From Deferribacterales bacterium UBA4806 (GTDB lineage: Bacteria; Chrysiogenota; Deferribacteres; Deferribacterales; UBA228): a stretch of 64,000 nucleotides of DNA. The stretch lies in the NCBI GenBank assembly GCA_002402635.1, contig DHGE01000126.1, forward strand, positions 893 through 64,892, given 5' to 3'. Numbering within the stretch: position 1 is the stretch's first letter; every line of letters starts with the position of its first letter. The notes under the pieces were generated by a model. That model saw only the letters and a list, made by a program, of their open reading frames with translations. It was not told the DNA's origin and did no database searches. This document shows, in pieces, positions 5,994 through 42,618 of this stretch. Made by a program: the position numbers and the translations under genes.

Positions 5994-6002
5994 TATCCCC
6001 TC

Positions 6003-15648: not shown

Positions 15649-15687
15649 CTATATATATTATAAGTAAAATTGCCATTTCATTTAGGG
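15649..15687 (-). promoter_or_regulatory. phage-specific promoter-like motif (upstream of the clamp loader)
   Basis: Minus strand: CCCTAAATGAAAT-N11-TTATAATATATATAG. Confidence 0.45.
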
Positions 15688-17073
15688 TAAATTTAAAAAT
15701 TTTCTTTCTCCCCAAGATTTATCCACCTCTGCTTTCTCTACTTCCACTGTTAAAGGTATGTTTATCCATTTCCAATTTTCCCTAATATCCTCTGTAGCTA
15801 TTCTAACCATTAACTTTATAGCATTATCACACTCTTCAGGTAAAATATCAGCCGTTATTTCATCGTGAATTTGGGATACTAATCTACTATCCATTTTATG
15901 CTCCCTAAATACTCTATCAATTTCTACAAATGCCCAAAGTAAACAATGAAAAGCAGTCCCCTGAAAGGGATAATTAGTTATATCTTTTTTACTCATCAAT
16001 CCATAACAGCGAAAACCTGTTTTCATCTCAATATATCCTTTTTTCTGATACTCATACCATACCTTATCTTTCCATCTACTATATTGTTTATATCTCACAT
16101 TCCAAAACTGGTCTTCTACTTTTCTAACGTGCTCCAAAAACTTATCAAATTTTTTAACATTACCTGATTTATCAAGCGTAATTAGTTCCTTATCCTTCAA
16201 ATGAACCAAAGCTGGAGTATCATCTTTGAGATAAGCCTGTCTTGCCCATTTAAGAAGATTTAATACACAATTTCCATAGTAATCTCCATAAAATTGTGGG
16301 AATACAAAACCATTTTTTGCTCCCTGTCTTAATACAGCTTCTCCAGAATGTCTTTTATCCAAATCATCCAACATATATAACTCTATAGCCATATCTTTGT
16401 GCATATCTCCGTGTAGAACATCATAACATAATTTTTCATCTTCTACATAACAAACTGCCATTTTTACTTCAATAGCCGAGTAATCCATAGAAACAAATTG
16501 GTGTCCTGGTCTCGGAAACAAAGCCTCTCTACATATTTTTGTAGCTTCCTTATCTCTCTTGGGTATATTTTGAAAATTTGGACTATCGCTAGAAGAGCGA
16601 AAAGTCTTAGTTAAATGTAAATTAAAAAATGGGTGAATATAGCCATTTACCTGCTCTCTCATAAACGCATCCAAATAAGTATCTCTAATCTTACGAAACT
16701 TTCTCATCTCCAATAACATATCCAATTCTGGTATATCTAACTCTGATAAAGCTTCTTCATCTGTAGCCGGTTGCCCTGATTCTGTAAATCTTACAGGTTT
16801 TAATTTTAGTATTGAATATAAAAATCTGCTCAACTGAGGATTTGAATTAAGGTTAGGTCTTTTCCCACCAATTGACCTGCTCCATTTTTTCCCAAAATTA
16901 CTTTCATAAATTTTCTGTTCTAATTCTGCTATTCTAATTGTCAACTCTTCTTTTTTTCTCTTACAATATTCCATATCCACTCTCATTCCTGTATATTCTG
17001 CTCTTTGTAAGGCTAAAGCTCCTTTATGAAAAAGTTCATAGGCTTCCTTTGTACTAGGTACACTTTTAACCAT
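15682..17073 (-). CDS. polA: family A DNA polymerase, polymerase (palm/fingers/thumb) subunit only
   Basis: SSSDSPNFQNIPKR, RQGAKNGFVFPQFYG (motif B) and QIHDEI (motif C). ATG at 17073 has GAGG 8 nt upstream; the track start at 17079 is TTG. Confidence 0.85.
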   Translation of the reverse strand: MVKSVPSTKEAYELFHKGALALQRAEYTGMRVDMEYCKRKKEELTIRIAELEQKIYESNFGKKWSRSIGGKRPNLNSNPQLSRFLYSILKLKPVRFTESGQPATDEEALSELDIPELDMLLEMRKFRKIRDTYLDAFMREQVNGYIHPFFNLHLTKTFRSSSDSPNFQNIPKRDKEATKICREALFPRPGHQFVSMDYSAIEVKMAVCYVEDEKLCYDVLHGDMHKDMAIELYMLDDLDKRHSGEAVLRQGAKNGFVFPQFYGDYYGNCVLNLLKWARQAYLKDDTPALVHLKDKELITLDKSGNVKKFDKFLEHVRKVEDQFWNVRYKQYSRWKDKVWYEYQKKGYIEMKTGFRCYGLMSKKDITNYPFQGTAFHCLLWAFVEIDRVFREHKMDSRLVSQIHDEITADILPEECDNAIKLMVRIATEDIRENWKWINIPLTVEVEKAEVDKSWGERKFLNLP

Positions 17074-17088
17074 TAGCAAAACCTCATT

Positions 17089-18330
17089 TTAATTTTCTTC
17101 ATCATATTCTATCTCCTTCATTTGTTTAATAGCCAGCCTATACGTAAATATTGTATCTAATCCATTATAAAGCAATAATTGTCTTTTACCTTCGCTACTT
17201 TCTAACAACCTATCAATCCTATTAAGTGAATTTCCATTTTTACTATCCACTGGTTGAAGATAAGAAGATATTTCACTATCATAATCCACTATCCCAAAGG
17301 TCACATACGTTAAAAATTTTAATCCAGTTATACCTTGTCTATTGTCTAAAATATGGGAGGCTAGCATAGTATCCCATTTCCAATTTCTTACTTCATAGCC
17401 TAACTTGTTTTGTATCCAAGTATGTTCAAATTTCATATTATGTGCTATTTTAGGTATATTGGGATTTCTTAAAACTCTTTTAATCTCATACAATACCTTC
17501 TCATCCTCTGGTAATAAAAATGAAAAGGCAGATTTTTCCGAATTACAAAAAGCAAATGAAATTATTTTACTCTCCTTACTATACCCTTTTAAACTATTTG
17601 TCTCTATATCTACCGCTATCAATCCTTTTATCTCTCTCAACAATTCAATTAATCTATCAGATGAACTCACTATTTCCACCTGAGATTTTTCATCTTCATA
17701 TTTCGGAAAAGGTTTATTATGCGTTGATAAGGCTCTTTCTAAATCCTGTTTCCAAATGATTTGAACTTCTCTTTCATCTCTCTCAACTACAAAGGAAGGA
17801 TGCCAAACAGGACACAGCCACGCATTAAAATCTCTATCAGGTATTACCCAACCTCTCCATTTTGTAATACCTCCCAAATCTTTTTTCCATCTATGTCCTA
17901 AAAGACAATTTATAGCAGTATTACCAAAAGCCATAATCACTTTGGGTTTTCTTTCCATTATAACTTTTATGATACTTGCTCTACAACTATTTATTTCCTC
18001 TGAGGTAGGTTCCCTATCATTTCCTTCTTTATCTACTACTCTACAACGTACTGCATTAACATTCAAACAATCCTCGAAAAGGTCAATTCCTAACCTTTCA
18101 TATTCTCTTTCTAATCTTCGTCCAACAACACCTTGCCAAGGTTTCCCCTTTCTATCCTCTTCTTGCGTGGGACTCATACCTATATTTAAAATCCCCTTTT
18201 TAAAATTACCAAAAGGCGGCATTTTAGGATTAATTGAATAACGATACAATCCACAAGAAACACAAGAATAAAATTTCCCATCAGGCCGAGAAACACTTTG
18301 TGTTTCTTTTAAATCAAAAAATCCTCTCAT
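17089..18330 (-). CDS. family-4 UDG-like domain fused to a 3'-5' exonuclease domain (N-terminal polymerase subunit)
   Basis: CVSCGLY, GMSPTQEEDRKGKPWQGVVGRRL, NAVRCR and WHPSFV (UDG4 pattern). Then IAVDIETNSL and later exonuclease motifs. Confidence 0.8.
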   Translation of the reverse strand: MRGFFDLKETQSVSRPDGKFYSCVSCGLYRYSINPKMPPFGNFKKGILNIGMSPTQEEDRKGKPWQGVVGRRLEREYERLGIDLFEDCLNVNAVRCRVVDKEGNDREPTSEEINSCRASIIKVIMERKPKVIMAFGNTAINCLLGHRWKKDLGGITKWRGWVIPDRDFNAWLCPVWHPSFVVERDEREVQIIWKQDLERALSTHNKPFPKYEDEKSQVEIVSSSDRLIELLREIKGLIAVDIETNSLKGYSKESKIISFAFCNSEKSAFSFLLPEDEKVLYEIKRVLRNPNIPKIAHNMKFEHTWIQNKLGYEVRNWKWDTMLASHILDNRQGITGLKFLTYVTFGIVDYDSEISSYLQPVDSKNGNSLNRIDRLLESSEGKRQLLLYNGLDTIFTYRLAIKQMKEIEYDEEN

Positions 18331-19387: not shown

Positions 19388-20380
19388 TTATAATCCTAAA
19401 TTATTTCTTATTTTAAAAACTATATTACTTTTTTTAACATTTAACCATTTTTCTAATTCCAAAAAATATCTTACATTTATAAGAGCCCTCATTTGAAATT
19501 GCTGTAAATCATCATAAGAATATCCATCTTGCTCTAAAAGTTTTAAAAAATTAGAAGTTAAATAACCAGTACCTTTTTTAATTTTCCTATCCGAAACAGT
19601 ACATACAAGAGCAGATTTTGAAAAATTAGAATTTTTAAAACCTCCTTGAGGATAATATATAGCACCCATACCTGCAGAAATCTTCCAACTTGCAGAATCA
19701 CAACTTGTCCAAGGTAAATTTAGAAGTATTTTCTTATTTGTAACTGCAAATCCATGTGTATCAACATTAACATTATTACGATATAAATATTCAAAAACTG
19801 ATAACATCCACTGATTTCTTTCATTTGTCGAAACATCATTTGCAGGTGAAATCCCAATATAATCGATATACTCAAGCATTTTATCTAACCACTTCCAACT
19901 TTCTCCTTGGTGAAATACATGTATTGGTTTTATACCTTGTTTTATCATTTCTTTCATATTTTGAAATCCAGCATTCGCCGCGCGTTCAATTAATTCAATA
20001 TTTTCAAATTTCCTATTCCTAGTTAAAGATTGTGTTTGTCCCACAATCCCGGGAATTACATCAAGATTTACAATATAAACCTTTTGATTAGAAAATTTTG
20101 AAACTTCATTAATTATTTGATGTGCATATTTAATATAATTATCCAAATTAATTAACTTTCCTTTATTCCATGCAGTAAAAGCCCCTGAATCAACTATAAT
20201 ATTCCCTTCCATATCTAATGGAATATTATTTATCCACCCTTTAAATTGGTCTGGGTAAATATAGGAAACAAGCACATTTTTAACCCCCGCATTTATAAGA
20301 TTAAACATCCTCTCATTACTACAACCCCCCCAAACAGCCGCAAAATAAAGTTTAATTGGCTTCATACTCAACCTCAACAT
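19388..20380 (-). CDS. dpdA: DpdA-type DNA 7-deazaguanine transglycosylase (TGT superfamily)
   Basis: IVDSGAFTAWNKG motif, TIM-barrel-like length, adjacent to the que genes. AGGAGG lies 11 nt before the Met at 20380. The longest ORF extends to 20404. Confidence 0.8.
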   Translation of the reverse strand: MLRLSMKPIKLYFAAVWGGCSNERMFNLINAGVKNVLVSYIYPDQFKGWINNIPLDMEGNIIVDSGAFTAWNKGKLINLDNYIKYAHQIINEVSKFSNQKVYIVNLDVIPGIVGQTQSLTRNRKFENIELIERAANAGFQNMKEMIKQGIKPIHVFHQGESWKWLDKMLEYIDYIGISPANDVSTNERNQWMLSVFEYLYRNNVNVDTHGFAVTNKKILLNLPWTSCDSASWKISAGMGAIYYPQGGFKNSNFSKSALVCTVSDRKIKKGTGYLTSNFLKLLEQDGYSYDDLQQFQMRALINVRYFLELEKWLNVKKSNIVFKIRNNLGL

Positions 20381-20810
20381 TAATAAAAGTTCCTCCTCGC
20401 GCATTAAAATTACTAATCACTTTCATCCAACGAGGTGAACAAACAGAAACAAGGTCCTCTAAAATCCTATTTGTAAGTGTTTCCATAAAACAACCATATT
20501 GACGATATGATAAAAGATAAAGTTTTAAACTTTTAGTTTCAATACATTTCTCATTTGGTATATATCTAATAGTAATAGTTGCAAAATCTGGCTGACTAGT
20601 CTTGGGACATAACGAAGTAAACTCACCAAACTTAAATTCAGTAATATAATTTCGATTGGGATATTGATTCGGAAAAACCTCAAGTAAATCTGGACAAGGT
20701 GAATCATATACATACTTTGTATTATGTGCGCCAAGTTGTATAAGCCCTTCAACTTCATCTTGTTTTGTATCAACTTTTGTACTTATTTCCTTTTGTTTAA
20801 AATCTTCCAT
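20352..20810 (-). CDS. queF: NADPH-dependent 7-cyano-7-deazaguanine (preQ0) reductase, unimodular type
   Basis: EFTSLCPKTSQPDFATITIRYIP and ETKSLKLYLLSYR (QueF motif). Confidence 0.9.
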   Translation of the reverse strand: MEDFKQKEISTKVDTKQDEVEGLIQLGAHNTKYVYDSPCPDLLEVFPNQYPNRNYITEFKFGEFTSLCPKTSQPDFATITIRYIPNEKCIETKSLKLYLLSYRQYGCFMETLTNRILEDLVSVCSPRWMKVISNFNARGGTFINVEVEYEAN

Positions 20811-20891
20811 ATATTGCCTCCTTATAATTCTTAGTAACTACTATAAAATAATAAGATACAATTTTATCCAAACTATTCATCTGTACTATAA

Positions 20892-21455
20892 TCAAATTCT
20901 ATTCCTAAGTCGTGCCATAAATTCATCCTTACAACCATCTTTATTTTCAAGAAAAATTCCACGTGCTTCAATCACTTCAAAAGGGCAATCCCATTTTTTA
21001 AGACCTCGCATTTCCTTACAAAGATGTCTTCCTGTCATTAAAAGGATACACCCAAGAGGATGGACAGCTTCCTCAATATAATCTAAAATATTTTTAACTA
21101 ATCTTTCTTGTATTTGAAGGCGCGCGGAAAAATAATCAATCGTTCTACCTATTTTACTTGCTCCCAAATATCCATATTTTGAATCAGGAATATAACCAAA
21201 ATAATAATGCCCAAAAAATGGAACCATATGATGCTCACATATACTAAAAAAATATCCTTTATCCGTAATTAACCCTTGAGGAGTTTCATCATTAAAAATA
21301 GTAATCACAGGAGGATTATCATGGTACCCACGAAATAACTCACAATACATTTTAGCAATTCTCAACGGTGTATCTTTTAACCCTTGACGTTCTGGGTCTT
21401 CACCTATCTCTAAAAGAATTTGTTTAAAAAGATTTGAAATTTTATTCATATTCAT
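20892..21455 (-). CDS. folE: GTP cyclohydrolase I
   Basis: DTPLRIAKMY and SICEHHMVPFFG. Confidence 0.9.
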   Translation of the reverse strand: MNMNKISNLFKQILLEIGEDPERQGLKDTPLRIAKMYCELFRGYHDNPPVITIFNDETPQGLITDKGYFFSICEHHMVPFFGHYYFGYIPDSKYGYLGASKIGRTIDYFSARLQIQERLVKNILDYIEEAVHPLGCILLMTGRHLCKEMRGLKKWDCPFEVIEARGIFLENKDGCKDEFMARLRNRI

Positions 21456-21458
21456 CTT

Positions 21459-22142
21459 CTATTGTCCTCCTTCATATTCAATAGGGTCTTTAATACCTAA
21501 TTCACAAAACGCTTCCAATCTTTCTTGACAACTTCCACATTTCCCACAACTAACAGGTTGACTCTTATAACATGTTCTTGTAAGATAATATGGAACCTGA
21601 GGATTACATTCCAATCCTTTTTTAAGAATAGTAATTTTATTATCATTAATTAATGGTGCCAGAACTTCTACTTTACAATTAGAAGATAAAAAAATAGCAG
21701 TATCCAATGCCTTTATAAATTCTTTTCGACAATCCGGGTAAATATAATGGTCTCCTTGATGGACACCAAGTGCAATAGCATTTGCATCAATTGATTCAGC
21801 CAATCCTGCCATAATGCCCGCAAAGATAAAATTACGTTCGGGAACAACCGTTACAGACATCGATTTATCATTATAATAACCCTCAGGAATATCACCACAA
21901 TGAAGAAGTAAATTAGATTTAAACACTTTCATAATATTGGAAATATCCATCATGTACTTTGTAATAGAAAATCCTTGTTTAAAATAAAATTCAAATACAG
22001 ATTGAGCTGCAATATTTTCCCATTTATTATGTTTAGAACCATAATAAAATATACAACAATGTACATCATAACCTTGCTCAAGTAAAATTCCAAGTAAAGT
22101 TGCTGAGTCCATCCCACCTGACAATCCCATAACTACTTTCAT
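21459..22142 (-). CDS. queC: 7-cyano-7-deazaguanine synthase
   Basis: VVMGLSGGMDSATLL (PP-loop) and C-terminal Cys cluster CYKSQPVSCGKCGSC. Confidence 0.9.
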   Translation of the reverse strand: MKVVMGLSGGMDSATLLGILLEQGYDVHCCIFYYGSKHNKWENIAAQSVFEFYFKQGFSITKYMMDISNIMKVFKSNLLLHCGDIPEGYYNDKSMSVTVVPERNFIFAGIMAGLAESIDANAIALGVHQGDHYIYPDCRKEFIKALDTAIFLSSNCKVEVLAPLINDNKITILKKGLECNPQVPYYLTRTCYKSQPVSCGKCGSCQERLEAFCELGIKDPIEYEGGQ

Positions 22143-22163
22143 AAAATCCTCCTATACGTTCTA

Positions 22164-22204
22164 CTTATATTTATATTATAAGTAAATATACAATTTCATT
22201 TAGG
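22164..22204 (-). promoter_or_regulatory. phage-specific promoter-like motif (upstream of queC)
   Basis: Minus strand: GCCTAAATGAAAT-N11-TTATAATATAAATATAAG. Overlaps the queE stop codon. Confidence 0.4.
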
Positions 22205-22880
22205 CTAATCCTAAAATTTTATGTAACTGTAATGAAATAATTACTCTATCTCTAAATTTATCAGGGAAAAAGAAAAGAACCCCTTTATTTTTTGTATCTG
22301 CATTCATAGGACTGATGATAAACATTCCCTTATACCCCATACTATCTAATTCTATCATATCCGTAACCACAAAATCTCTATCTTTATGATAATAAGGAGA
22401 AACAGTAGAAGCAACTACATATTTAAAAATAACTGGAGTTTTATTCCAATTATAAAAATCTATTCCTAACTCTCCAATAGGACGTGATTGATTTTCAGAG
22501 GAAGGTCCTTTTCTATCTATAACCCAACCTCCACGACCTTGTATCTCTGATATAACAGGAATTGGTAAAGAACCATTAGTTTCTATTTGGACATAATGTC
22601 CTGCCAATAATAAAATTCTAATAAAATCAATACAATTCTCTGCCAAGAGAGGTTCTCCACCTGTAATCAATACTTGTTTGGTTTTAATCTTATTAAATAC
22701 ATCATCCGCAGAATATTCTATTCCGCCTTTAGAGGATTGCGCTTTAACAGTGTCGCAGTAGATACAACGTAAATTACATTTTTGAAATCGAAGGAATATA
22801 CAAATACTTCCCTGAGGAAAGAAACCGGATTCTCCACTAATAGAAACAAAAGGTTCTTCATGTAGATATAATTTCTTCAT
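22200..22880 (-). CDS. queE: 7-carboxy-7-deazaguanine synthase (radical SAM)
   Basis: FQKCNLRCIYCDT (CxxxCxxC), ITGGEPL. Confidence 0.85.
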   Translation of the reverse strand: MKKLYLHEEPFVSISGESGFFPQGSICIFLRFQKCNLRCIYCDTVKAQSSKGGIEYSADDVFNKIKTKQVLITGGEPLLAENCIDFIRILLLAGHYVQIETNGSLPIPVISEIQGRGGWVIDRKGPSSENQSRPIGELGIDFYNWNKTPVIFKYVVASTVSPYYHKDRDFVVTDMIELDSMGYKGMFIISPMNADTKNKGVLFFFPDKFRDRVIISLQLHKILGLA

Positions 22881-25624: not shown

Positions 25625-26950
25625 CTAATCCTCCTTTTCTTTTTCTTTATTTTTATATTTTCGTTCTTGTTCCTCTTGATATTGTAAAGCTATTTCATCT
25701 GCTCCTTCACAAATACCAAATATTCCTGTTCGATTAGAACCTCTAACTTGAATATTTATTTGCTCCTTTTGTATTTGCATAGACTTCCTAATCCTCATAT
25801 AATATTCCCGGAACTCTTTTGCGTCCATTACTGATTTTACTTTTGAATAATCATAATTTTTTACATACCATTCTAAAATCTCATTAATTTCCTGTTCACT
25901 CCTTCCATTTTCTTCACTTAAAATCTGAAATTCCTTTGCCCAATCTAGTCTTTTATTTGGTGGTAAAGTTATCTTTATAGCTTTAGACAAAGTTTCTGCC
26001 ATTTCTAAGTATTTTTTAGGTAGTTGTTTTTTATTAGCCTCAAACAAAAAATAACTAAATCCCCCACCTTTAGCAAAATTGTTCCATAAAGTGCTATCCA
26101 ATGATAATCTTTGATTTTCATTTTTTACAATGGTGTAAAGAACTCTTTTTATTTCTGATATACTCCAAGTTTTAAATAAAAGTTCATCAGGGATATTATA
26201 TTTTTTACAAAAATTCTCTAAACTTTTTGCGGGCATATTATTTTTGTTACAAATGACTGGTCTTCCATTCATCAGGTTTTCTATCATTGTATAAATTCTT
26301 TTGTAAACTTTAGTGGTGGAGTCTTTATGTTTCGTAGTACCAGTGAGATTGTTCCAAAAATTTAAAATTTTTTGTACATCTGAACTGTAACGTTCCGTAG
26401 GAACGTAAGATACTTTAGTATCTATATTTTTTATATCTAATTCTTTATTATCTAATTTATTATTATCTATATTATTTAAGGTTTTGCTTAACCCCCCCTT
26501 TAAGGTTTCGCTTAACCCCTCCTTAAGATTATCCTTAATAGGTATTAAGGTTTCACTTAACCCCCCTTTAGATAAATCTTTAAGGGTAGTTAATGTTTTT
26601 TCTAATACCTTTTGTAATATTTTTTGATATTTTTGAGGATAGGTAGGATTAATATAAATCTTTCTAATCTGTGCTCCGTCATATCTTATCTCATATTCTA
26701 TATATAGATACTCTAATTTATATAATTTATTAATCATACTTGATATTGTTTCAGGTCTAATATTTATTAATTTACTGAGATATTTATTGCTTGCCCAGCA
26801 ATACCCTTGTTCATTACTTGTTAGATTATTTAAAAATCCAAATAATATTTTTTCCGTACTTGATAATTTTTCATTAAATAAAATTTCTGCTGGGATTACA
26901 ATATTAGGTAATCCCAGTGAATTTATTTTTGTATATTCTATATTTTTCAT
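25625..26950 (-). CDS. replication initiator/organiser with N-terminal winged-helix and internal iteron-encoded repeats
   Basis: N-terminal HTH-like CWASNKYLSKLINIRPETISSMINKL. Central GGLSETL x3. Located directly upstream of the loader and helicase. Confidence 0.45.
   Translation of the reverse strand: MKNIEYTKINSLGLPNIVIPAEILFNEKLSSTEKILFGFLNNLTSNEQGYCWASNKYLSKLINIRPETISSMINKLYKLEYLYIEYEIRYDGAQIRKIYINPTYPQKYQKILQKVLEKTLTTLKDLSKGGLSETLIPIKDNLKEGLSETLKGGLSKTLNNIDNNKLDNKELDIKNIDTKVSYVPTERYSSDVQKILNFWNNLTGTTKHKDSTTKVYKRIYTMIENLMNGRPVICNKNNMPAKSLENFCKKYNIPDELLFKTWSISEIKRVLYTIVKNENQRLSLDSTLWNNFAKGGGFSYFLFEANKKQLPKKYLEMAETLSKAIKITLPPNKRLDWAKEFQILSEENGRSEQEINEILEWYVKNYDYSKVKSVMDAKEFREYYMRIRKSMQIQKEQINIQVRGSNRTGIFGICEGADEIALQYQEEQERKYKNKEKEKED
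26478..26569. repeat. three roughly 23-bp direct repeats (candidate origin iterons) inside the initiator gene
   Basis: TAAGGTTTTGCTTAACCCCCCCTT (26478-26500), TAAGGTTTCGCTTAACCCCTCCTT (26501-26524), TAAGGTTTCACTTAACCCCCCTTT (26546-26569). An extreme AT tract at 26400-26477 adjoins them. Confidence 0.5.
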
Positions 26951-26972
26951 CTCATACCTCCTTCGGGATTTA

Positions 26973-27365
26973 TTAATATAAATCTTTTCTAAAATTTTTA
27001 AAATACTTTTTATTCTCTTTTTTCATTATATTCTCTAAACTCGTGAATTTCAATCGAAAAAATCTCCCGGACTCTATTAGTGGTATATTTTCTTTTTCTA
27101 TGTTATTCCAATACCAATCTAATACTGCTTGAACTCGTTCTGTACTTACATTATTATATTCCACTAATTTCTTTATTTCATATGTCCATTGGCAAATCTG
27201 ATAAGGAGTAATTTTTATATTTTTTTTAATTTGTAGGATAGTGGCTAGTTCGTAGGCCAATAAAAAATAATCATCATTGTTAATAATACACTTTTTTTGA
27301 AAAAAATCAACTCCAAAAAATTGATTATTGTAATTTCTAGTATTACTATAATTATTTGTTTGCAT
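26973..27365 (-). CDS. hypothetical protein
   Basis: ORF in the tiling. Confidence 0.5.
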   Translation of the reverse strand: MQTNNYSNTRNYNNQFFGVDFFQKKCIINNDDYFLLAYELATILQIKKNIKITPYQICQWTYEIKKLVEYNNVSTERVQAVLDWYWNNIEKENIPLIESGRFFRLKFTSLENIMKKENKKYFKNFRKDLY

Positions 27366-27366
27366 T

Positions 27367-28650
27367 CTACACCCCTATTATTATTTCTGGATATTCTTTA
27401 CTTCTAACTGTCAGGTTAGGTTTCATGAAAAGTGGAATATTGAATTCATTACATTGTATAATCAGAGATTTAACCCATTTCCATTCTGGTTGACCTTCTG
27501 ACATCCCAGTTGACCTAGACCTTCCTCCTACAATTAGCCACTCGATAGGTGGATTTTTTGGAAGTACTATATGTTCCATTAAAGGTTCACATGAAATAAA
27601 TCTGGTAGGATGATTTATTTGTTCGAAAATTTCTAAGGCAAGATTCATTCTTTTTTGAGTATCTGCCGTAGCCCCTAACCAGCAAGTTTCTGGCCACCTG
27701 AATTCTAAATAACGTTTAGGATTTTTAGTAAGAATAATGCAATTCCATTGAGGAGATTTTTTCATACTTTCTATCACCTGTTCAATCCACTCTTTCTTTA
27801 CCCAATCACCAAGCATATCTCCCATAGACACTGTAAAAACATTGTGAATACCAGATTCATTTTTCCTGTTTTCTGGTATTTTTGTGTTTTCTGGAGCTGA
27901 TAATCTTTTAGGATAGAAATGAGGTTCAAATCCATGAGGATAAAAACGATTAGCTATATCTCGAGCGTAACAGTAGGGGCATCCGTGTTTACATCCTGTA
28001 ATGGGATTCCATGTCCACTTTGCCCAGTCGATATTTTCATTGGTAGTATTAAAAGTAGGTTTTTCAACTTCTTTTCTTTCCTTTTTTTCTTTTCTAAGTT
28101 CTCCTGCCGCTTTATCAATGGAGATTTCTCCTACGATAACTTTGTTTTTTATTTCTTCATTATCTGAATCCAATATTGTTCTGGCATTACTAACGGTGGA
28201 GGAACCTACTCCTAATATTTCAGCAGTTTTTTTATGGGAAGGTTCTTTTTGTTCTTGAATCAAATTTTTGGTACCAAAAATTTGATTTTTAAATTCTTTA
28301 CTTTTACGGTCACCACCTCTTTTCTGTCTTTTATCCAAGGCTTCAATACATCTTAATATTTCTGCCTGGGTGAGATTTCTACGATTTCTTTGATTATGAA
28401 TAGCATACTCTAAGGCATGTCTTTCGGACTTAAATTCGTATTGTACCACCGGTATATCTTTTATCCCTGCTTGTTTTGCCGCTTCAAGTCTGGTATGCCC
28501 ATCAATTACAATGTTTCCCCATAAAACAATTGGTAATGCTTCATCATACCCTTGTTCTTCCATATTTTCTTTTATAGCTTGTAAAATAGCATCATTTATA
28601 TCAAATATGGAATTAAAAGGTTCCTGTGTTTTGATTTCATCAATTTTCAT
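27367..28650 (-). CDS. ParB/Srx-like N-terminal domain + HTH + DUF5131 (phage Gp37/Gp68, three-Cys CxxxCxxC) fusion protein
   Basis: NIVIDGHTRLEAAKQAG (ParB motif), TAEILGVGSSTVSNA (HTH), WTWNPITGCKHGCPYCYA, FTVSMGDM, ILTKNP, ISCEPL, WLIVGG, PLFMK (DUF5131 pattern). Confidence 0.75.
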   Translation of the reverse strand: MKIDEIKTQEPFNSIFDINDAILQAIKENMEEQGYDEALPIVLWGNIVIDGHTRLEAAKQAGIKDIPVVQYEFKSERHALEYAIHNQRNRRNLTQAEILRCIEALDKRQKRGGDRKSKEFKNQIFGTKNLIQEQKEPSHKKTAEILGVGSSTVSNARTILDSDNEEIKNKVIVGEISIDKAAGELRKEKKERKEVEKPTFNTTNENIDWAKWTWNPITGCKHGCPYCYARDIANRFYPHGFEPHFYPKRLSAPENTKIPENRKNESGIHNVFTVSMGDMLGDWVKKEWIEQVIESMKKSPQWNCIILTKNPKRYLEFRWPETCWLGATADTQKRMNLALEIFEQINHPTRFISCEPLMEHIVLPKNPPIEWLIVGGRSRSTGMSEGQPEWKWVKSLIIQCNEFNIPLFMKPNLTVRSKEYPEIIIGV

Positions 28651-29452
28651 TTTTTTCCTCCTTTTCTTTTTCTGTATAATTATATTTATATAATAATTCC
28701 TGTCCTTCCTTTGTATCTATACTGATAAATCTGAATGTTTTTATATCATACTGTTCCGTATTAGTTCCAAAAAGTAATAACCATTGGTATTTTGAATGTA
28801 TTTGTAAAAGTGAGTTATCTCTAATCCATATATATTTTTTATTTAATTGGGATATAATGGAAAAAAGTGTTACTTCCTTATACTTTTTAAAGCATTCTCT
28901 TCCGCCTTTTTCATAAGCAGTGCGATTTCTTTTTATCTGTGTAGCGTTAATGTTTAGAATAATATCCATTCTAGGATTGTTTTGAATAAAAGAAATAAGG
29001 GCCTTGTAGTCTTCTAAAATGAATCCATAAGGGTCGAAATATAATAGCCCGTATCTATATTTTTTACCTCCTAAATCATATAGAACTTCTTGCATATTTC
29101 TTCTACGAAAATTTATCTCTATTTTTGTATTTTTTACCATTGGTAAAAATCTGTGATAATAATTTCTTTTTAATTCTTTCATTTCTTTTTTATCCCTTTC
29201 TATTAGGTATAATTTCATTGGAATTTTTGTGTAAGGTAAAAGACTTTTTAAAAATATTTGAGGAGAGGTAAGATAATCAGGGTTCATATCCTTGGCAGTG
29301 CAATCTATAAAATATAATTCATTTTCAAACCATTTATTATATTTATACTTGTTATAAATAAATATTAATTTTCTGATTTGGGTATTAATTAAATACCGTA
29401 AATCCTTTTGTTTAAAAGGTGTTATTTCTGACATTTTTTCTAATGCACTCAT
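28640..29452 (-). CDS. tcmP: TcmP-like protein (three-Cys-motif partner protein), methyltransferase-fold suspected
   Basis: About 270 aa, immediately downstream of and overlapping the DUF5131 gene. YFIDCTAKD and LLYFDPYGF resemble the remembered TcmP pattern. The call is mainly by context. Confidence 0.45.
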   Translation of the reverse strand: MSALEKMSEITPFKQKDLRYLINTQIRKLIFIYNKYKYNKWFENELYFIDCTAKDMNPDYLTSPQIFLKSLLPYTKIPMKLYLIERDKKEMKELKRNYYHRFLPMVKNTKIEINFRRRNMQEVLYDLGGKKYRYGLLYFDPYGFILEDYKALISFIQNNPRMDIILNINATQIKRNRTAYEKGGRECFKKYKEVTLFSIISQLNKKYIWIRDNSLLQIHSKYQWLLLFGTNTEQYDIKTFRFISIDTKEGQELLYKYNYTEKEKEEKNEN

Positions 29453-29529
29453 TTGTTGCCTCCTTATAATTTAAGGTTTTATTTGTTAATTACCTTATAA
29501 TCTAAGGCAATTTTTTTCTCCTTATAATA

Positions 29530-30465
29530 TTATATTTTACCCATCAATTGCCTTACTATATAATCTGCTTCTTTTTGTGGCAATTCAGCAGGGTCTTCTT
29601 TCATATTTATATTCACTCTCCAAGCTTTTATACCTCTCATTTTTAATTCCGCGGATAATTTATCAGCCTGTTGATTAGCCTGGGGTTCTCCATCGAATAG
29701 TATTGCTACCTTTTTAAAATGGTGTGCTATTTGTTTTACTTGAGCTTGTGTATAACTTATTCCAAATATAGCAAATGAATAAATCCCTAATCTCCATACA
29801 TCTGTTATCCCTTCTACACATATACCTATTTCTCTCCATTTTTCCTGCTTTCCGTAAAGAATAGTTTGGTGTTCTATCAGCTCCCTTTCTTTTGGGCAGG
29901 CTTTGTATCTTAATCTTGACGATTTTAATATAGAACGTCCTTGAAAAGATACTATATTTCCATTCCAATAAATGGGAGCTATAATTCTATTTTTATAATC
30001 GGAATTATCTAATTTAGATACCGGCCCAGTCCCTAATAAATTCCATTCTTGTTCTAATTTATCTGGGTCGAAATTTCTAGAGATAAGATATTGTTTATGT
30101 GATTCTAAAAGTTTTCTACAATTCGAAGGAAATTCAAATGGTTTGGTTTTGACTATTTCTTTTTTAACTTTTTCTATGTTACTTTTTTTATTATATTCCT
30201 GTATTAGTTCCTTTATTTGTGTAAAGGATAATCCTGACAATTTAACTAGTGTTTCTACAATGGGGTGACTTCCGCACCTCCAACAATTGCTAGAGGTTAA
30301 TTCTTCGGGAATACCTAAATGATATCCTTCCTCACCAGATTCACAAAAGGGACAATTTACATTACACCAACCTTTTGTAGCGTGATGATGTTCACCTTTT
30401 CTTACATAAGGAATATTAAGGTCGGATAACAATTTAGAGGCACTCATTATTCGCTCCAGAAACAA
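29530..30465 (-). CDS. DNA primase (zinc ribbon + TOPRIM)
   Basis: CPFCESGEEGYHLGI...CWRCG (Zn ribbon), VEGITDVW and LFDGEPQA (TOPRIM acidic motifs). Confidence 0.65.
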   Translation of the reverse strand: MFLERIMSASKLLSDLNIPYVRKGEHHHATKGWCNVNCPFCESGEEGYHLGIPEELTSSNCWRCGSHPIVETLVKLSGLSFTQIKELIQEYNKKSNIEKVKKEIVKTKPFEFPSNCRKLLESHKQYLISRNFDPDKLEQEWNLLGTGPVSKLDNSDYKNRIIAPIYWNGNIVSFQGRSILKSSRLRYKACPKERELIEHQTILYGKQEKWREIGICVEGITDVWRLGIYSFAIFGISYTQAQVKQIAHHFKKVAILFDGEPQANQQADKLSAELKMRGIKAWRVNINMKEDPAELPQKEADYIVRQLMGKI

Positions 30466-30502
30466 TAAATAATTTGAAAAGAAGGTTCATTTTTTATAAC
30501 CT

Positions 30503-30541
30503 CTATATATATTATAGTTAAAAATCACATTTCATTTAGGG
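30503..30541 (-). promoter_or_regulatory. phage-specific promoter-like motif (upstream of the primase)
   Basis: Minus strand: CCCTAAATGAAAT-N11-CTATAATATATATAG. Overlaps the sigma-like gene stop codon. Confidence 0.45.
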
Positions 30542-31004
30542 CATTTTTTATATTGGTGAAAGCTTTCCATATTCTACTCCAAGACCAACCTTGTTTTCTT
30601 AATTTTTTATATATTTCACCTTTACAAACTTTGGGCAAAAATCCTACATATTCCAGAGGTGATTCCAAAATTATTTTACAAACCTCTCTTGCTTCAATTC
30701 CCATATCGTTAAGAAGTTCTGAAATTGGGGGACACCAGGGTACAGGAATTTCCATTGTTTCTCCAGTTTCTGTAATAAGAGATAAATGATTTTTTTCCTG
30801 TCTTTCTTTTACAATATAGGTTATCAACGCATTTTTAACATAGGTATAGATTAAGGTAGTTTTCTTATTACCTTTTGTTATGTCAAAATCCCGTAAAGCT
30901 TTGTAATATGCTACCAGAGCCTCTGATAGCATATCCTCATACTCAAGGTCTGGATTTTTATTCCAGAATTTCCACACTAAATTGTTGATTAAATTTGTTT
31001 CCAT
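30525..31004 (-). CDS. small sigma-70-family-like factor
   Basis: YEDMLSEALVAYYKALRDFDITKGNKKTTLIYTYVKNALITYI (region-2-like). C-terminal KKLRKQGWSWSRIWKAF is a region-4-like HTH. Confidence 0.5.
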   Translation of the reverse strand: METNLINNLVWKFWNKNPDLEYEDMLSEALVAYYKALRDFDITKGNKKTTLIYTYVKNALITYIVKERQEKNHLSLITETGETMEIPVPWCPPISELLNDMGIEAREVCKIILESPLEYVGFLPKVCKGEIYKKLRKQGWSWSRIWKAFTNIKNALNEM

Positions 31005-31124
31005 TTTAATACCTCCTTTAAGTTATTATTATTATAATATATCTGATACTTATTGATTTTTTTAAAAAATTTATTATACTAATAAATAATTGTCTGTAAT
31101 TTTTTGAAAAAATTATTATTTTTG

Positions 31125-31165
31125 CCCTAAATAAAAGTGAAATTTTAGTTATAATATATATATAG
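31125..31165 (+). promoter_or_regulatory. phage-specific promoter-like motif, rightward orientation
   Basis: Plus strand: CCCTAAATAAAAG-N11-TTATAATATATATATAG, in the divergent region 31005-31344. Confidence 0.4.
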
Positions 31166-31286
31166 AGAAAGAAAAGTAAATAGGAAGTAAAATGAATTAT
31201 CTTTTTCATACTATTATATATAATATAAGCATTTTAAAAAGTCAAGAGTTTTTTATAAAATATTTATAAAAGTATTAGAAAAAGTA

Positions 31287-31326
31287 TTGACTTTTTACTT
31301 AAAAAAGTATATTAGGTATTTATAAT
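31287..31326 (+). promoter_or_regulatory. sigma-70-like early promoter upstream of the SNF2 gene
   Basis: TTGACT at 31287-31292. A/T-rich -10 candidates: TATATT (31308), TATTAG (31310), TATAAT (31321). Confidence 0.4.
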
Positions 31327-31344
31327 AACTTCAAGGAGGTTAAA

Positions 31345-32955
31345 ATGTTTGTGGATTTATTAAATAATAGTACTTTAAAAATAAAGTTTAATTATGACAG
31401 GGAGTTGGTCGAATGGGTTAAGGATAGTATTCAAGGTAGAAAATACTATCCCGAAAGTAAAGTATGGACTGCTCCTTTAATTAAAAATAATATAGATTTA
31501 TTACAGCAAAGGGGATTTATTTTCAGTGATGGGTTGAAAGAAAAATTAAATAATGAAAAAAAGATAGAATTAAAAGGGGAGATTGAAATACCCTCAATAA
31601 AGGGTTCTTTATATCAATTTCAAAAACAAGCTGTAGAATTTTTGCAACTTAAGAATGGGAGAGCCTTGATTGCAGATGAGGTAGGATTAGGCAAAACGTT
31701 AGAAGCCTTATCTTGGACAGCACTTCACCCAGATAAAAGACCTGTGTTAATTGTATGTCCTGCTACTTTAAAACTAAATTGGAGACACGAGATAGATAAA
31801 TGGATTGGCAAAGTTAGGATAACTATTCTAAGTGGAACCACTCCATATGATATAAGAGATAGTGAGTATATTATCATTAATTATGATATAATTAATGAAT
31901 GGATGGATAAAATATTAGAAAAACAACCACAGATTTTGATACTAGATGAAGCCCATTATATAAAAAATTCGAAAACTATTAGGACTAAGACAATAAAATA
32001 TATTAGTAAATATATCCCTCACGTAATTGCTCTAACAGGAACTCCTATAATTAATCGTCCTATTGAAGCATATAATATAATAAAAATAATAGATAATAAT
32101 GTTATACCAGATTTTAAAACTTATACACAGGTTTTTTGTGATGCTAAATTAAGAAAATTTCGAGGTAGAATGTTTTGGGATTACAGTGGGGCAAGTAATA
32201 CAGAAGAGTTACACAATTTATTAACCAAGACTATAATGATAAGAAGGCTAAAGAAAGATGTGTTGAAAGAATTACCAAAGGTCACTAGAACTTTTGTACC
32301 CATTGAATTAAATAATTATAATGAATATAAACAGGCAGAAAACAATTTTATTGAGTTTATATTGGATAAGGAGGGAGAGGATAAAGCTAAAAAGATAACC
32401 CGCGCAGAAGCATTAGCTAAGGTAGAGATACTTAAACAATTGGCTATAAAAGGCAAACTTGAGTCTTGTCTGGAGTGGATAGAAGACTTAATTGAGAATA
32501 ATGGTAAAGTAATTGTGTTTGCTGTACATAGACAGGTCATAGATAGAATATATAATCATTTTCATAAAATTGCAGTTAAAGTAGATGGTAGTGTTACTGG
32601 TGCTAAAAGAGATGAAGCTGTACAAAAATTTCAAAACGATGATAATGTAAAGTTATTTGTAGGTAATATAAAAGCGGCAGGTACAGGGTTAACTCTTACA
32701 GCTTCCCATAATACTGTATTCTTGGAATTGCCTTGGACGCCTGGAGACGTTATACAGGCCGAAGGGCGCAATGATAGGATTTCTCAGGAATATCCTGTAA
32801 ATGTGTATTATTTATTGGCGGATAATACAATAGAGTGGGATATAGCTGAAATGTTAGATAGAAAAAGACAGGTTTTAGATATGGTATTAAATGGTGAGGA
32901 GACTGAGCAAGAAAGTTTATTGACTGAGATAATTAAAAAGTTTAAGAAAAATTAA
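31345..32955 (+). CDS. SNF2-family helicase/translocase
   Basis: [14 protein letters not shown] (motif I), [11 protein letters not shown] (DEAH), LTGTPI, and the C-terminal helicase lobe ([15 protein letters not shown]). Confidence 0.85.
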
Positions 32956-35791: not shown

Positions 35792-36505
35792 ATGATGAAA
35801 AAAGAAATAAATGAAACTTCAATTAGCAGATTATTAGAAAGGAATGAAAAATTTGATTGTTGCTTTATTACAGCTTTCAGACTAACAGATAACTGTGATA
35901 TGGGCAGACCTTATACTAAAAGAGAAAATATGGCAAGAAATTACTCTTTGGAATTAAAATTAGCACGTAGTTGGTATAGTGTTACCAGAGTCATTGGTAC
36001 TTATGAAGATAAAGGAAAAAAACAAAAAGAAATATCCTTTTTTGTAGTAGATGATAGAGTAGATGAAGATGACTCTTTGAAAAAGAGACAAGAATATACA
36101 AAAGAATTTTTAGAGGATATGTTATATTTAGGAGAATTATATGAACAGGATAGCATTTTATTCCTTCCCAAAGGTTCTATTTTAGGCAAAGCTAAACCTA
36201 TATTATATGGAACTAATGATTGTCCAAGAGCTATAGGCAAAGGAAATAAAGAATATTTTAATGGGGGTTCAAGAATTAATAAAACATCTAAACTATATAC
36301 TACTATTGTTAATGGTAAGCCTATGTATTTTGAAATGGGAGTAAATGAAGTTTATGGGGCTCAAACAGGGCTTGGAAATTTGGGGTTAGCTATATTAGCA
36401 AATAAACCTTGGAAAGATTTACTTAAATACATAGATGAAAAATATGAAAGAAATTATTTTAAAGACCCATATATAGAATATTGTAAAAATAGGAGGTTGA
36501 AATGA
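35792..36505 (+). CDS. hypothetical protein
   Basis: ORF in the tiling, AGGAAG RBS. Confidence 0.55.
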   Translation: MMKKEINETSISRLLERNEKFDCCFITAFRLTDNCDMGRPYTKRENMARNYSLELKLARSWYSVTRVIGTYEDKGKKQKEISFFVVDDRVDEDDSLKKRQEYTKEFLEDMLYLGELYEQDSILFLPKGSILGKAKPILYGTNDCPRAIGKGNKEYFNGGSRINKTSKLYTTIVNGKPMYFEMGVNEVYGAQTGLGNLGLAILANKPWKDLLKYIDEKYERNYFKDPYIEYCKNRRLK

Positions 36506-37821: not shown

Positions 37822-39825
37822 TTGGAAAACACTATGAAAAATACTTTTGAAAAAATCTTAAAAGAGATTGTTACAAACTCTCATTATACAACCACACCTT
37901 ATGATTTTTCTGTTTTGAATATTGAAATTTTAGAAAGTGCTTATGAAAGATTTTTAAGTAGGACTATAAATCTAATACACTTACATCAAATAAAAATAGA
38001 AGAAAATCCAGAGGGTAGAAAAGCTGGAGGAGTTTATTATACTCCTGAATATATTGTTGATTATATTGTGAAGAACACTGTTGCTAAAAAAATTGAAGGA
38101 CTAACTCCAGAGGAAATAAAGAATATAAAAATACTTGATCCAGCTTGTGGTTCTGGAAGATTTCTAACCAGTGCTTATGATTGCCTTTTAGAATATCACA
38201 AAGGATGGTATTCAAAAAATCAAAAAAATAAGGAATACAAAAAAGATTGGTATTCAACTGAGGATGGTAACCTCAAAATATGCATTGATAAAAGAGGAGA
38301 AATACTTAGGAACAATATTTTTGGTGTAGATATTGACAGGGAAGCAACAGAAGTTGCAATGATGAGCTTATACTTAAAAATGCTTGATGATGGACTTGAT
38401 AAAGGAGGGAGAGATCTTTCCTTTATGAAAGGACAGGTATTACCAGATATGGAAGATAACATAAAGTGTGGAAATAGTTTGGTCGGTCCAGATTATTTTG
38501 ATGGTAATCCTTTAGCTAATGATAAAGATGAACGTAAAACTATTAATCCATTTGAATGGAAAGCTGAATTTAAAGAGATAATGAATAATGGTGGTTTCGA
38601 TATTATTATTGGTAATCCCCCATATGTTGATATTAAAGGATTGGATCCAAAGATAGTAAAATATTATTTTAAAAAATACTCTACTGTTGAAAATAGGATG
38701 AACCTTTATGCTGTGTTTGTTGAAAAATCTTTAATTTTACTAAAATGTGAAGGATACTTTGGTTTCATTATTCCTAATTCTATTTTATACAATAAATCAT
38801 ATTACAAATTAAGATCACTTATTTTAAATAACACAACTATAAATAAAGTAATAAGATTACCTGATAATGTATTCCAAAATGTTAAAGTGGAAACAATTAT
38901 TTTAGTAATTGAAAATAAAAAAGTGGTTACAAATATATCACAGAGCGAAGTTATTATTTATCCAAGAGAGGCAACTATTAATGAAATAAATATAGAAGAC
39001 AAAAGTAAAGTTATAATATTTAATCAAGAAACTTGGAAATCTGAAGACAATATTATTAATATCTCCATTAATGTTTTAACAAAGCAACTGTTAGAAAAAA
39101 TAGAAAAAAAAGCCACACCATTAATAGATATTTGTGATTTTTCTTTAGGTATAACACCTTATGATAAATATAAAGGGCATACAAAATATCAAATAAAAAA
39201 TAAAATATTTCATTCTAAAATGAAAATAGATGAAACTTATAAACCCTTATTATCTGGAGAAAATATAATTAGATATGGTGTTTTTTGGGATGGCAATAAC
39301 TATATCCGTTATGGAAATTGGTTAGGAGCACCCAGAGAACAACGATTCTTTGTAAAATCCAGAATACTAGTTAGACAAATTCTAAGTGGCAAACCACTAA
39401 GAATTTACGCAGGATACTCAGAAGATGAACTTTATAATACACAAATTGCATTTAATCTTTTAATAAAAGATGGCGTTGATATCCAACTTAAATATTTACT
39501 TGCAATATTGAATTCAAAATTAATGAGCTTTTATCATAAAGAGAAATATTTAGATCCATCAAAAACTTTATTTCAAAAGATTTTAATAGTAAATACAAAG
39601 AAATTCCCAATGGTTATCCAAAAAACACAACAACAGCTTATAGCAGAGCTTGTAGAAAATATGATTAATGCTAATAAAGAACTATTAAATTGTAGGTCAG
39701 ACACAGATAAAAATATTATAGAAAGACAAATTAAATATCTTGATAAAAAAATTGATGAACTTGTGTATAGTATTTATGAATTGACAGATGACGAAATTAA
39801 AATAATAGAAGAAAGTTTAGGATAA
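37822..39825 (+). CDS. N6-adenine DNA methyltransferase (Eco57I/TaqI-like gamma class) with target-recognition domain; no nuclease domain
   Basis: YYTPEYIVDYIV, ILDPACGSGRFL (motif I), IIIGNPPYVDIKG (motif IV NPPY). The start is uncertain (TTG 37822, ATG 37834). Confidence 0.85.
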   Translation: MENTMKNTFEKILKEIVTNSHYTTTPYDFSVLNIEILESAYERFLSRTINLIHLHQIKIEENPEGRKAGGVYYTPEYIVDYIVKNTVAKKIEGLTPEEIKNIKILDPACGSGRFLTSAYDCLLEYHKGWYSKNQKNKEYKKDWYSTEDGNLKICIDKRGEILRNNIFGVDIDREATEVAMMSLYLKMLDDGLDKGGRDLSFMKGQVLPDMEDNIKCGNSLVGPDYFDGNPLANDKDERKTINPFEWKAEFKEIMNNGGFDIIIGNPPYVDIKGLDPKIVKYYFKKYSTVENRMNLYAVFVEKSLILLKCEGYFGFIIPNSILYNKSYYKLRSLILNNTTINKVIRLPDNVFQNVKVETIILVIENKKVVTNISQSEVIIYPREATINEINIEDKSKVIIFNQETWKSEDNIINISINVLTKQLLEKIEKKATPLIDICDFSLGITPYDKYKGHTKYQIKNKIFHSKMKIDETYKPLLSGENIIRYGVFWDGNNYIRYGNWLGAPREQRFFVKSRILVRQILSGKPLRIYAGYSEDELYNTQIAFNLLIKDGVDIQLKYLLAILNSKLMSFYHKEKYLDPSKTLFQKILIVNTKKFPMVIQKTQQQLIAELVENMINANKELLNCRSDTDKNIIERQIKYLDKKIDELVYSIYELTDDEIKIIEESLG

Positions 39826-42370: not shown

Positions 42371-42618
42371 ATTTTCTGGGTGTAATAAAATATTTTTTAC
42401 TGTAGTGGTTTTTGATATTGAGCTTAGATAAGATATATAATTATTAAAAAAATTGTTTAGGTTATCTTGTACATTTCTGTTAATTGAGTTTGTTATAATT
42501 TTATACCTGCTTATGATAATTCTACTGTTTTGAAAATAAGTGATTATACCGTAAAAAACGAAGGTAGATAATGTGATAATATTAATTAAAATTAAAAATT
42601 TATTGATTAATTTCTTTT

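Follow-up and report, generated by a model that had tools for sequence, protein, structure and literature searches.

We describe here a two-gene module on the minus strand of a 64,000-nucleotide (nt) stretch of DNA from Deferribacterales bacterium UBA4806 (contig DHGE01000126.1 of assembly GCA_002402635.1, positions 893 to 64,892; hereafter the window, a piece of a 115-kb metagenomic contig). Within a phage replication module, a protein that joins a ParB/sulfiredoxin (Srx)-type N-terminal domain, a helix-turn-helix (HTH) region and a DUF5131 radical S-adenosylmethionine (SAM)-like core is encoded together with a divergent member of the TcmP superfamily. We propose, at about even confidence, that the two genes form a translationally coupled enzymatic module that is tethered to DNA and modifies it in a SAM-dependent manner. 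The ParB-fused form with its divergent partner is new here, the unfused and biochemically uncharacterised pair being already known. The open reading frames (ORFs), domains and motifs of the module, in window positions, are the following:

27367..28650, minus strand: fusion gene, 427 amino acids (aa), ParB N-domain, ParB HTH and DUF5131 radical-SAM-like domain
28640..29452, minus strand: partner gene, 270 aa, divergent TcmP-superfamily protein with a predicted RlmJ-like class I methyltransferase fold (ORF, TIGR04474, AlphaFold2 (AF2), Foldseek, hhalign)
28640..28663, minus strand: gene junction, including the 11-nt overlap at 28640..28650 and a Shine-Dalgarno sequence (sequence read)
28657..28663, minus strand: Shine-Dalgarno AAGGAGG of the fusion gene, 6 nt before its ATG and within the partner ORF (sequence read)
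29459..29465, minus strand: Shine-Dalgarno AAGGAGG of the partner gene, 6 nt before its ATG (sequence read)
28321..28650, minus strand: ParB/Srx-type N-terminal domain of the fusion, aa 1-110, with a DGHTR box (aa 50-54) and an HNQRNRRNLT box
28066..28248, minus strand: HTH region of the fusion, aa 135-195, counterpart of the ParB central DNA-binding domain (AF2, Foldseek, profile)
27421..28038, minus strand: DUF5131 (PF07505) domain of the fusion, aa 205-410, partial TIM-barrel radical SAM core (Pfam, Foldseek)
27970..27993, minus strand: CxxxCxxC motif CKHGCPYC of the fusion, with Cys220, Cys224 and Cys227 as predicted [4Fe-4S] ligands (invariant in 40/40)
29285..29311, minus strand: partner motif I FIDCTAKDM, aa 48-56, counterpart of the RlmJ/TcmP DxxAGxG SAM loop, with Lys54 for Gly
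29021..29050, minus strand: partner motif IV GLLYFDPYGF, aa 135-144, counterpart of RlmJ GLILIDPPYE (hhalign register)

Both ORFs and their 11-nt overlap, as given in a preliminary description of this DNA, hold in a direct reading of the minus strand; the TcmP-like gene, which had been taken for the following one, is in fact the upstream (5') gene of the pair. The translation of the fusion gene contains both IDGHTRLEAAKQAG and WTWNPITGCKHGCPYCYA, and that of the partner gene both FID and FDPYGF. The overlap and the Shine-Dalgarno sequence inside the upstream ORF imply translational coupling, and no minus-strand terminator is predicted between ~31.0 and 22.8 kb around the pair, which is compatible with one long transcript through it, promoter and terminator scans being uninformative in the 29% GC DNA of the window. 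The start codons of the pair line up with the N-termini of homologues. We rule out a chance pattern or mis-called ORFs, as homologues cover 99% of the fusion at 40-82% identity, as well as a frameshift or assembly artefact, as hundreds of independent contigs and genomes share the architecture; altogether the homologues fall into more than 1100 protein clusters, many of them full-length within the same identity range.

Assignment of the C-terminal half of the fusion to DUF5131 is firm from its profile match, as PF07505 scores 133.3 bits (E-value (E) 1.4e-38; model positions 2-213 of 243), where 28.9 is the gathering score, and the membership that the preliminary description had put up for a profile check thus passes it. 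The likeness to the DUF5131/Gp37-Gp68 family extends over the C-terminal 220 residues, with the WxWNPxxGC...CxxC hallmark and a partial TIM-barrel. The three cysteines of the motif, rightly recognised as being of radical SAM type, are invariant in all 40 aligned full-length fusion homologues (41-82% identity), as are W214, N215 and P216 of the W-x-W-N-P box that precedes them, and this half is the most conserved part of the fusion, with many invariant residues resembling those of an active site. Foldseek, run with the AF2 model of the fusion (predicted local distance difference test score (pLDDT) 88.3), superposes this half with RlmN, with spore photoproduct lyase and with a radical SAM methyltransferase, 6fz6 (E 5e-4 to 2e-3). 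NCBIfam models of the PA0069 and Rv2578c radical SAM families match weakly at the cluster motif, and TIGR04471 (radical SAM mobile pair protein A) reaches 82.2 bits against a curated cut-off of 355, as expected of a related family rather than a member. DUF5131 appears once in the searchable literature, as a radical SAM subgroup, where it forms Megacluster-5-2 next to the spore photoproduct lyase cluster 5-3 (RadicalSAM.org; PMC9477430).

The ParB half is established by its family profile, by PHROGs and by its fold, without Pfam support on its own sequence. ParB_N (PF02195) gives no match to the fusion at E<=0.1 or E<=0.05 and TIGR00180 reaches 22.7 bits against a cut-off of 58.45, whereas PHROG ParB-like families match the N-terminus at up to E 1e-17, and several fusion homologues carry precomputed PF02195 matches. 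A profile of the 40-sequence family matches the solved structures of pNOB8-type ParB (5k5a, E 3.9e-8) and Spo0J (1vz0), placing the DGHTR box opposite GERR and HNQRxRRNLT opposite ENLQRxDLS, and a second, weak stretch aligns to the Spo0J HTH. Within the DGHTR box G51 and R54 are invariant and D50, H52 and T53 at least 90% conserved among the 40 homologues. Some 200 N-terminal residues of the AF2 model superpose on ParB, Spo0J, KorB and Noc (Foldseek E 3e-7); the HTH region, with modelled helices at 138-146, 150-161, 165-172 and 178-194, is an ordinary ParB DNA-binding domain and no separate module. The three-part composition initially noticed in the fusion is thereby confirmed by profiles, PHROGs, AF2/Foldseek and Pfam.

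With the ParB, Spo0J, KorB and Noc clamps the fusion shares the fold of the N-domain and HTH and the alignable positions of boxes II and III, but it differs in that the GERRxRA cytidine triphosphate (CTP)-binding box reads DGHTRLEA, in that the C-terminal dimerisation domain is absent and its place taken by the radical SAM core, and in that neither ParA nor parS occurs at the window module; a search of 26900..31400 for parS-like or other meaningful repeats returned AT-rich chance matches only. Because DGHTR replaces GERRxRA and the dimerisation domain is missing, the suggestion that the ParB domain is of the DNA-clamping, CTPase type is not supported. Residues 19-86 of the fusion also match phrog_498 (E 7e-8) and PADLOC MTase_II (E 3e-5). 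The ParB-methyltransferase phage fusions of this kind (phrog_498, B. cereus Bce_0392) have the same DGHxR-like ParB/Srx N-domain joined to a SAM-using enzyme, which in them is a Rossmann methyltransferase, whereas in the window the fused enzyme is a radical SAM core and the methyltransferase-like protein is separate. Nicking of DNA or use of nucleoside triphosphates (NTPs) is reported for ParB/Srx domains that are joined to DNA methylases (PMC5512222).

The partner has TIGR04474 (TcmP) as its only family match, with none in Pfam, PHROGs or PADLOC and none in a sequence search against Protein Data Bank chains. It resembles TcmP in being adjacent to and co-oriented with a three-Cys-motif (DUF5131) gene, but it is sub-threshold (E 6.8e-8, 32.8 bits against a curated cut-off of 53), aligns over its central 120 residues only (residues 60-178), and reads AKDM and DPYGF. 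When used alone as a phmmer query, the partner nevertheless reaches proteins that pass TIGR04474 and are encoded by ORFs adjoining DUF5131 genes (L122, 79.1 bits; L012, 60.9; L096, 56.0; E 6e-9 to 1e-8); a profile of its close relatives collects 757 cluster representatives among 1.84 billion proteins, and 115 of the 130 family representatives that were scanned match TIGR04474 at E<=1e-3. Such transitive homology places the partner solidly in the TcmP superfamily, and the initial identification as TcmP thus stands at the level of the superfamily and fails at that of the TIGR04474 cut-off. Among the same 130 representatives, six have, presumably via a fused domain, a match to the NCBIfam IscB model as well (best E 7e-8). 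The TcmP profile aligns to 10 separate stretches of one 1376-aa protein (P0177).

The AF2 model of the partner (pLDDT 86.6) has a class I methyltransferase fold whose best solved matches are E. coli RlmJ, which forms m6A2030 in 23S rRNA, and a DUF519 protein (Foldseek E 4e-7, TM 0.43-0.47); RsmD is weakly matched by two partner homologues. A 77-sequence TcmP-like profile aligns to RlmJ with an hhalign probability of 90% (E 1.5e-6), the DxxAGxG SAM loop, a GSP motif, the acidic residue after strand 2 and motif IV being in register, which shows TcmP to be homologous to this adenine-N6 methyltransferase. RlmJ is thus matched in fold and in profile, yet it and the partner are only 13-15% identical, the helical insert of RlmJ (itself a DUF519 protein) is absent from the partner, the RlmJ substrate is an RNA adenine, and its catalytic DPPY is not kept, motif IV reading DPN[G/A] in the TcmP family and DPYGF in the window copy. 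Across the 77 TcmP-like proteins D50 is present in 74, G54 in 73, D140 in 75, P141 in 69 and N142 in 60; the window copy is the only one with Lys at 54, and it has Tyr at 142. Its SAM loop, DCTAKDM, therefore departs from the DxxAGxG pattern that the family consensus retains. Because Lys54 and Tyr142 deviate, an active methyltransferase cannot be assumed, and from these residues SAM binding or catalysis by this copy appears doubtful: what had been called a methyltransferase-like partner is so in fold, and not assuredly in activity.

To define how regularly the two genes occur together, we compiled 171 loci (80 from viral contigs, 80 genomic, the rest context look-ups), which form 135 clusters at 90% identity of the DUF5131 domain, and counted pairing only where at least 900 nt of upstream sequence was available. 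In non-redundant loci the counts are as follows:

ParB-fused DUF5131: TcmP-like gene in 43 of 55 loci, adjacent in 41
DUF5131 with another N-terminal extension: TcmP-like gene in 14 of 26 loci, adjacent in 14
Short stand-alone DUF5131: TcmP-like gene in 7 of 42 loci, adjacent in 6

The form that travels with TcmP is thus the fused one and not the stand-alone phage form (ParB-fused against stand-alone, Fisher p ~1e-9, uncorrected for phylogeny), and the TcmP-like neighbour of the ParB fusion lies nearly always directly upstream. Where the other N-terminal extensions could be identified, they are again ParB_N, DUF3102 or HTH modules. Eight independent full-length fusion homologues have flanks of at least 3 kb; five of them have an upstream TcmP-like gene (257-287 aa) that overlaps or abuts the fusion gene, and in one, L008, the TcmP domain heads a longer upstream protein; the contig of the window is arranged in the same way as the five. 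Overlapping or abutting gene pairs occur in L001-L007, L011, L178 and L179. In L111 (4230..5864) a single 545-aa ORF comprises a TcmP-like part (aa 26-247) and a DUF5131 part (aa 313-535), separated only by the tail of a ParB HTH region; it represents a Rosetta-stone fusion or else an in-frame deletion in the contig of a metagenome-assembled genome (MAG).

DUF5131 occurs in cultured phages (mycobacteriophages and Gordonia phages) as a stand-alone protein of ~230-300 aa, whereas in the window it is fused to the ParB N-domain and HTH; likewise, the stand-alone forms of viral contigs lack the TcmP-like neighbour that the window form has. Among 50,697 GenBank phage records none has a match that covers at least 80% of the fusion, half-length matches only being found, and none matches the partner. 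Besides viral contigs, the fusion itself occurs among bacteria in Syntrophales, Desulfovibrionaceae and many further lineages; several MAGs of methanogens and Methanoperedens have it, as do numerous genomes of Streptomyces and other actinomycetes. In the cyanobacterial loci of the same scan, DUF5131 is short and unfused and has a TcmP-like gene beside it. One group of viral contigs (L052-L091, e.g. L088 2733..4508) carries short stand-alone DUF5131 genes without TcmP, and 21 loci of this group have a nearby ORF with a cytosine-C5 methyltransferase-like FxGxG, judged by motif alone. In L009 an ORF fragment upstream of a partner-less fusion (5665..5997) contains a second CxxxCxxC motif (GCLHRCNYCY) followed by an HNH-like CHSCHCKLH, and may represent another radical SAM gene, now disrupted, together with a homing endonuclease.

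The genes around the fusion are always those of phage early or replication regions (ERF recombinase, SSB, PolA, Prim-Pol, DnaB, NinG or DnaD-like genes), and DNA methyltransferases are frequent near the pair, with Dam-like or C5 methylases in related loci. In such surroundings the pair is kept together across many unrelated phages and prophages. In the window the minus-strand order runs from a sigma-70 region 2 protein and a Toprim/DnaG-like primase through the pair to a 130-aa ORF, an HTH_36/DnaD-like initiator, an IstB/DnaC-like ATPase and a DnaB-like helicase, so that the location inside a replication module, first read from the window alone, is borne out. L179 mirrors this arrangement with the order primase, pair, X, DnaB; in L178 the pair is the first after a CI/Cro-like switch; and in L001-L005, as in the window, the fusion lies directly upstream of replication-initiator-like genes (HTH_36, Phg_2220_C).

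The unfused pair has already been catalogued by PADLOC. Its models PDC-M30B and PDC-M41B match the DUF5131 half of the fusion (E 1e-36 to 1e-38) and PDC-M30A and PDC-M41A weakly match canonical TcmP-like partners, the window partner matching neither A model, from which we take PDC-M30 and PDC-M41 to be the same gene pair in unfused form. The B models have ~241 positions and no ParB fusion and were defined in host genomes, whereas the window copy lies in a phage replication module. We found no experimental test of PDC-M30 or PDC-M41 in the literature searched, and no functional study of DUF5131, TcmP or a ParB-radical SAM protein in what is searchable. The initial statement that neither family has an assigned function is supported to this extent, and the pair is uncharacterised in this functional sense, though not unnoticed.

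In the mechanism that we propose, the ParB/HTH half would tether the module to phage DNA early in infection and could, by the precedent of other ParB/Srx domains, have a nicking or NTP-using activity as well. The radical SAM half would bind a [4Fe-4S] cluster and cleave SAM to give a 5'-deoxyadenosyl radical, which would abstract hydrogen from a DNA base or sugar, and the TcmP subunit would bind or flip the target nucleotide, possibly adenine, canonical members perhaps also binding or using SAM; given the degenerate SAM loop of the window copy, the subunit of this phage may have no catalytic role. Phage DNA would in this way be marked or protected by a covalent modification, which would add to the 7-deazaguanine and N6-adenine methylation functions encoded in the window. 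The strongest available clue to DNA as the substrate is the covalent fusion of DUF5131 to a ParB DNA-binding unit, and the nearest radical SAM folds in Foldseek, RlmN and spore photoproduct lyase, are all nucleic-acid enzymes. A self-protective DNA modification would be in keeping with the presence of FolE, QueC, a QueE-like gene and an Eco57I-type adenine methylase in the same phage. We infer a DNA-modification function on these grounds, and the earlier interpretation of the pair, as an additional DNA modification or DNA-processing activity, is supported in part.

Several observations weigh against this proposal. The Radical_SAM model PF04055 falls just short on the fusion (26.8 bits, E 6.8e-6, gathering score 29.5); despite this miss, the fold match and the RadicalSAM.org listing of DUF5131 support membership of the superfamily. 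For both proteins the closest folds are RNA enzymes (RlmJ and RlmN), so that an RNA target is conceivable. The whole subfamily of the partner reads AGDM rather than AGxG, the second glycine being lost, and Lys54 of the window copy occupies a SAM-loop glycine that is 95% conserved. About one fifth of ParB-DUF5131 genes have no TcmP-like neighbour, and in five loci a 280-aa ParB-like protein with a DGQNR box stands next to the fusion, immediately upstream in four and immediately downstream in one, so that TcmP is not obligatory and the DGQNR-box protein looks like an alternative partner; it is found in L092-L094 (about 3966..4988), in L180 (6149..6991; a locus otherwise syntenic with the TcmP-carrying L006 and L007) and in L166 (2086..3075, the downstream case). 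All-against-all ORF clustering of the 171 loci, a noisy procedure given the stop-to-stop ORFs of high-GC loci, returned no third consistently linked gene. PADLOC, moreover, lists the unfused pair as a candidate for host defence and not for phage self-protection, and the searched literature holds no biochemical data on any DUF5131 or TcmP member.

A more specific form of the proposal, which we hold only tentatively, is that the pair represents a new class of DNA writer, a DNA-tethered radical SAM enzyme which would install a hitherto unknown radical-derived modification directly on canonical bases of phage DNA after replication with the help of an RlmJ-like base-flipping subunit, for example by adenine C-methylation or another C-H functionalisation. 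A 2021 paper counts two radical SAM enzymes known to act on DNA, spore photoproduct lyase and gp53 of phage M6. The latter, a photoproduct-lyase-like enzyme that isomerises glycinyl-thymidine in DNA during thymidine hypermodification, was, according to its description, the first case of a DNA modification being installed by a radical SAM enzyme (PMC8989533). Both are larger and neither carries ParB; spore photoproduct lyase is among the nearest folds of the fusion, membership in the same family as gp53 is ruled out by an hhalign probability of 15%, and no 5-hydroxymethyldeoxyuridine (5-hmdU) pathway adjoins the window pair. If the DNA-writer reading is true, the pair would be only the second case in which radical SAM chemistry modifies DNA, and the first that needs no pre-installed 5-hmdU handle.

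The same genes could also serve conflict, the module attacking or marking foreign DNA, be it that of the host, a superinfecting phage or a rival element, for superinfection exclusion, defence or host takeover. ParB/Srx would then act as a nickase or DNase under NTP control, and the target DNA would be damaged or altered by the radical SAM domain. The PADLOC assignments of DUF5131 and, weakly, of TcmP-like partners speak for this, as does the reported nickase or NTPase nature of ParB/Srx domains in conflict systems (PMC5512222). Many genomic copies lie in prophages or islands, e.g. beside an integrase in L010 and L178. TcmP figures in the searchable literature solely as an annotation label, in two S. 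meliloti papers that can both be read in the same sense: in one, a list of genes up-regulated in the nolR+ strain has SMa2243, a TcmP gene, beside the Hna defence gene SMa2245 (PMC12445080), and in the other TcmP is part of a list of prophage cargo (PMC12429752). The PDC systems are candidates only, however, no toxin/antitoxin-like or sensor component is linked to the pair, and in the window, L004, L179 and other loci the pair sits inside the replication module of large phages with their own polymerase, primase and helicase, a placement that fits action on the phage's own DNA; we regard a conflict effector as unlikely. We see a slimmer chance for DNA repair, in which DUF5131 would reverse a lesion by radical chemistry as ParB/HTH scans the DNA and the partner recognises the damage. 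Of the solved folds, spore photoproduct lyase is one of the closest (4fhc, E 8e-4), its cluster is the neighbour of DUF5131 in RadicalSAM.org, and the weak PA0069 and Rv2578c matches point the same way, but the fold likeness is confined to the radical SAM core that both share (TM ~0.34), it is not obvious what a methyltransferase-like partner would do in lesion reversal, the early/replication and DNA-modification neighbourhood is more typical of modification, and, as many carriers come from anoxic, dark habitats (Syntrophales, methanogens), UV photoproducts are unlikely in many of them.

That the best structural matches are RlmJ and RlmN, the latter forming m2A in 23S rRNA and tRNA, together with the weak matches to RsmD, would suit a pair that modifies an adenine of host rRNA or tRNA and so reprogrammes translation, ParB/HTH serving for regulation or localisation only. 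At 10-15% identity, however, these matches denote generic fold classes. The radical SAM enzyme has a ParB N-domain and HTH, or other DNA-binding modules (ParB_N, DUF3102), covalently joined to it, and that the RlmJ DPPY is not kept in the TcmP family further argues against an RNA target, which we consider slightly less probable even than repair. Least probable of all, and very remote in our view, is an accessory role in replication or partition, the protein being chiefly a DNA-binding factor of ParB type whose radical SAM domain would be regulatory, sensing redox state or SAM. It would account for the ParB N-domain and HTH architecture and for the position directly upstream of replication-initiator-like genes in the window and in L001-L005, but not for the TcmP linkage, nor for a radical SAM half that is the most conserved part and whose invariant residues are active-site-like; ParA, a ParB C-terminal dimerisation domain and nearby parS-like repeats are, in addition, all missing.

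Further genes of the window bear on DNA modification. A preQ0 (7-deazaguanine) cluster on the minus strand (20352..22880) comprises a QueE-like gene (22200..22880), QueC (21459..22142, 172 bits) and GTP cyclohydrolase I (FolE; 20892..21455, 153 bits), and the phage therefore probably already carries a deazaguanine DNA modification. Beyond FolE lie ORFs of 152 aa (20352..20810) and 338 aa (19388..20404, no Pfam match), which could be QueD and a DpdA-like transglycosylase. A link between the pair and this cluster is ruled out, as no Que genes occur near the pair in the other loci examined. On the plus strand, a weak SAM lyase-like ORF (35792..36505; 24.7 bits, below the cut-off of 28) and a 667-aa Eco57I/N6_Mtase/TaqI_C-type adenine methyltransferase (37822..39825) are further candidates for restriction evasion in the same phage. 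The family A DNA polymerase is split on the minus strand (15682..18330) into a UDG-like and 3'-5' exonuclease protein (17089..18330) and a polymerase domain (15682..17079), the three parts being joined in one 766-800-aa protein in L004 and L005. On the minus strand at 40634..44319 lie bacterial-type genes, one for a methyl-accepting chemotaxis protein (dCache, HAMP, MCPsignal) and one for a PilB/T2SSE-type ATPase (414 bits). They could indicate a prophage-host junction near 40 kb or be host-like genes borne by the phage; GC content is unchanged across the ~40 kb point.

DUF5131 is a sizeable radical SAM subgroup of phages, prophages, bacteria and archaea, and the pair has culturable carriers, among them Streptomyces ramulosus JCM 4193, S. 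kronopolitis CGMCC 4.7323 and Streptacidiphilus carbonis NBRC 100919. The prediction, if false, would still leave a well-delimited and conserved two-gene module; if true, it would mean a new DNA modification chemistry and, with it, a new anti-restriction or defence principle.

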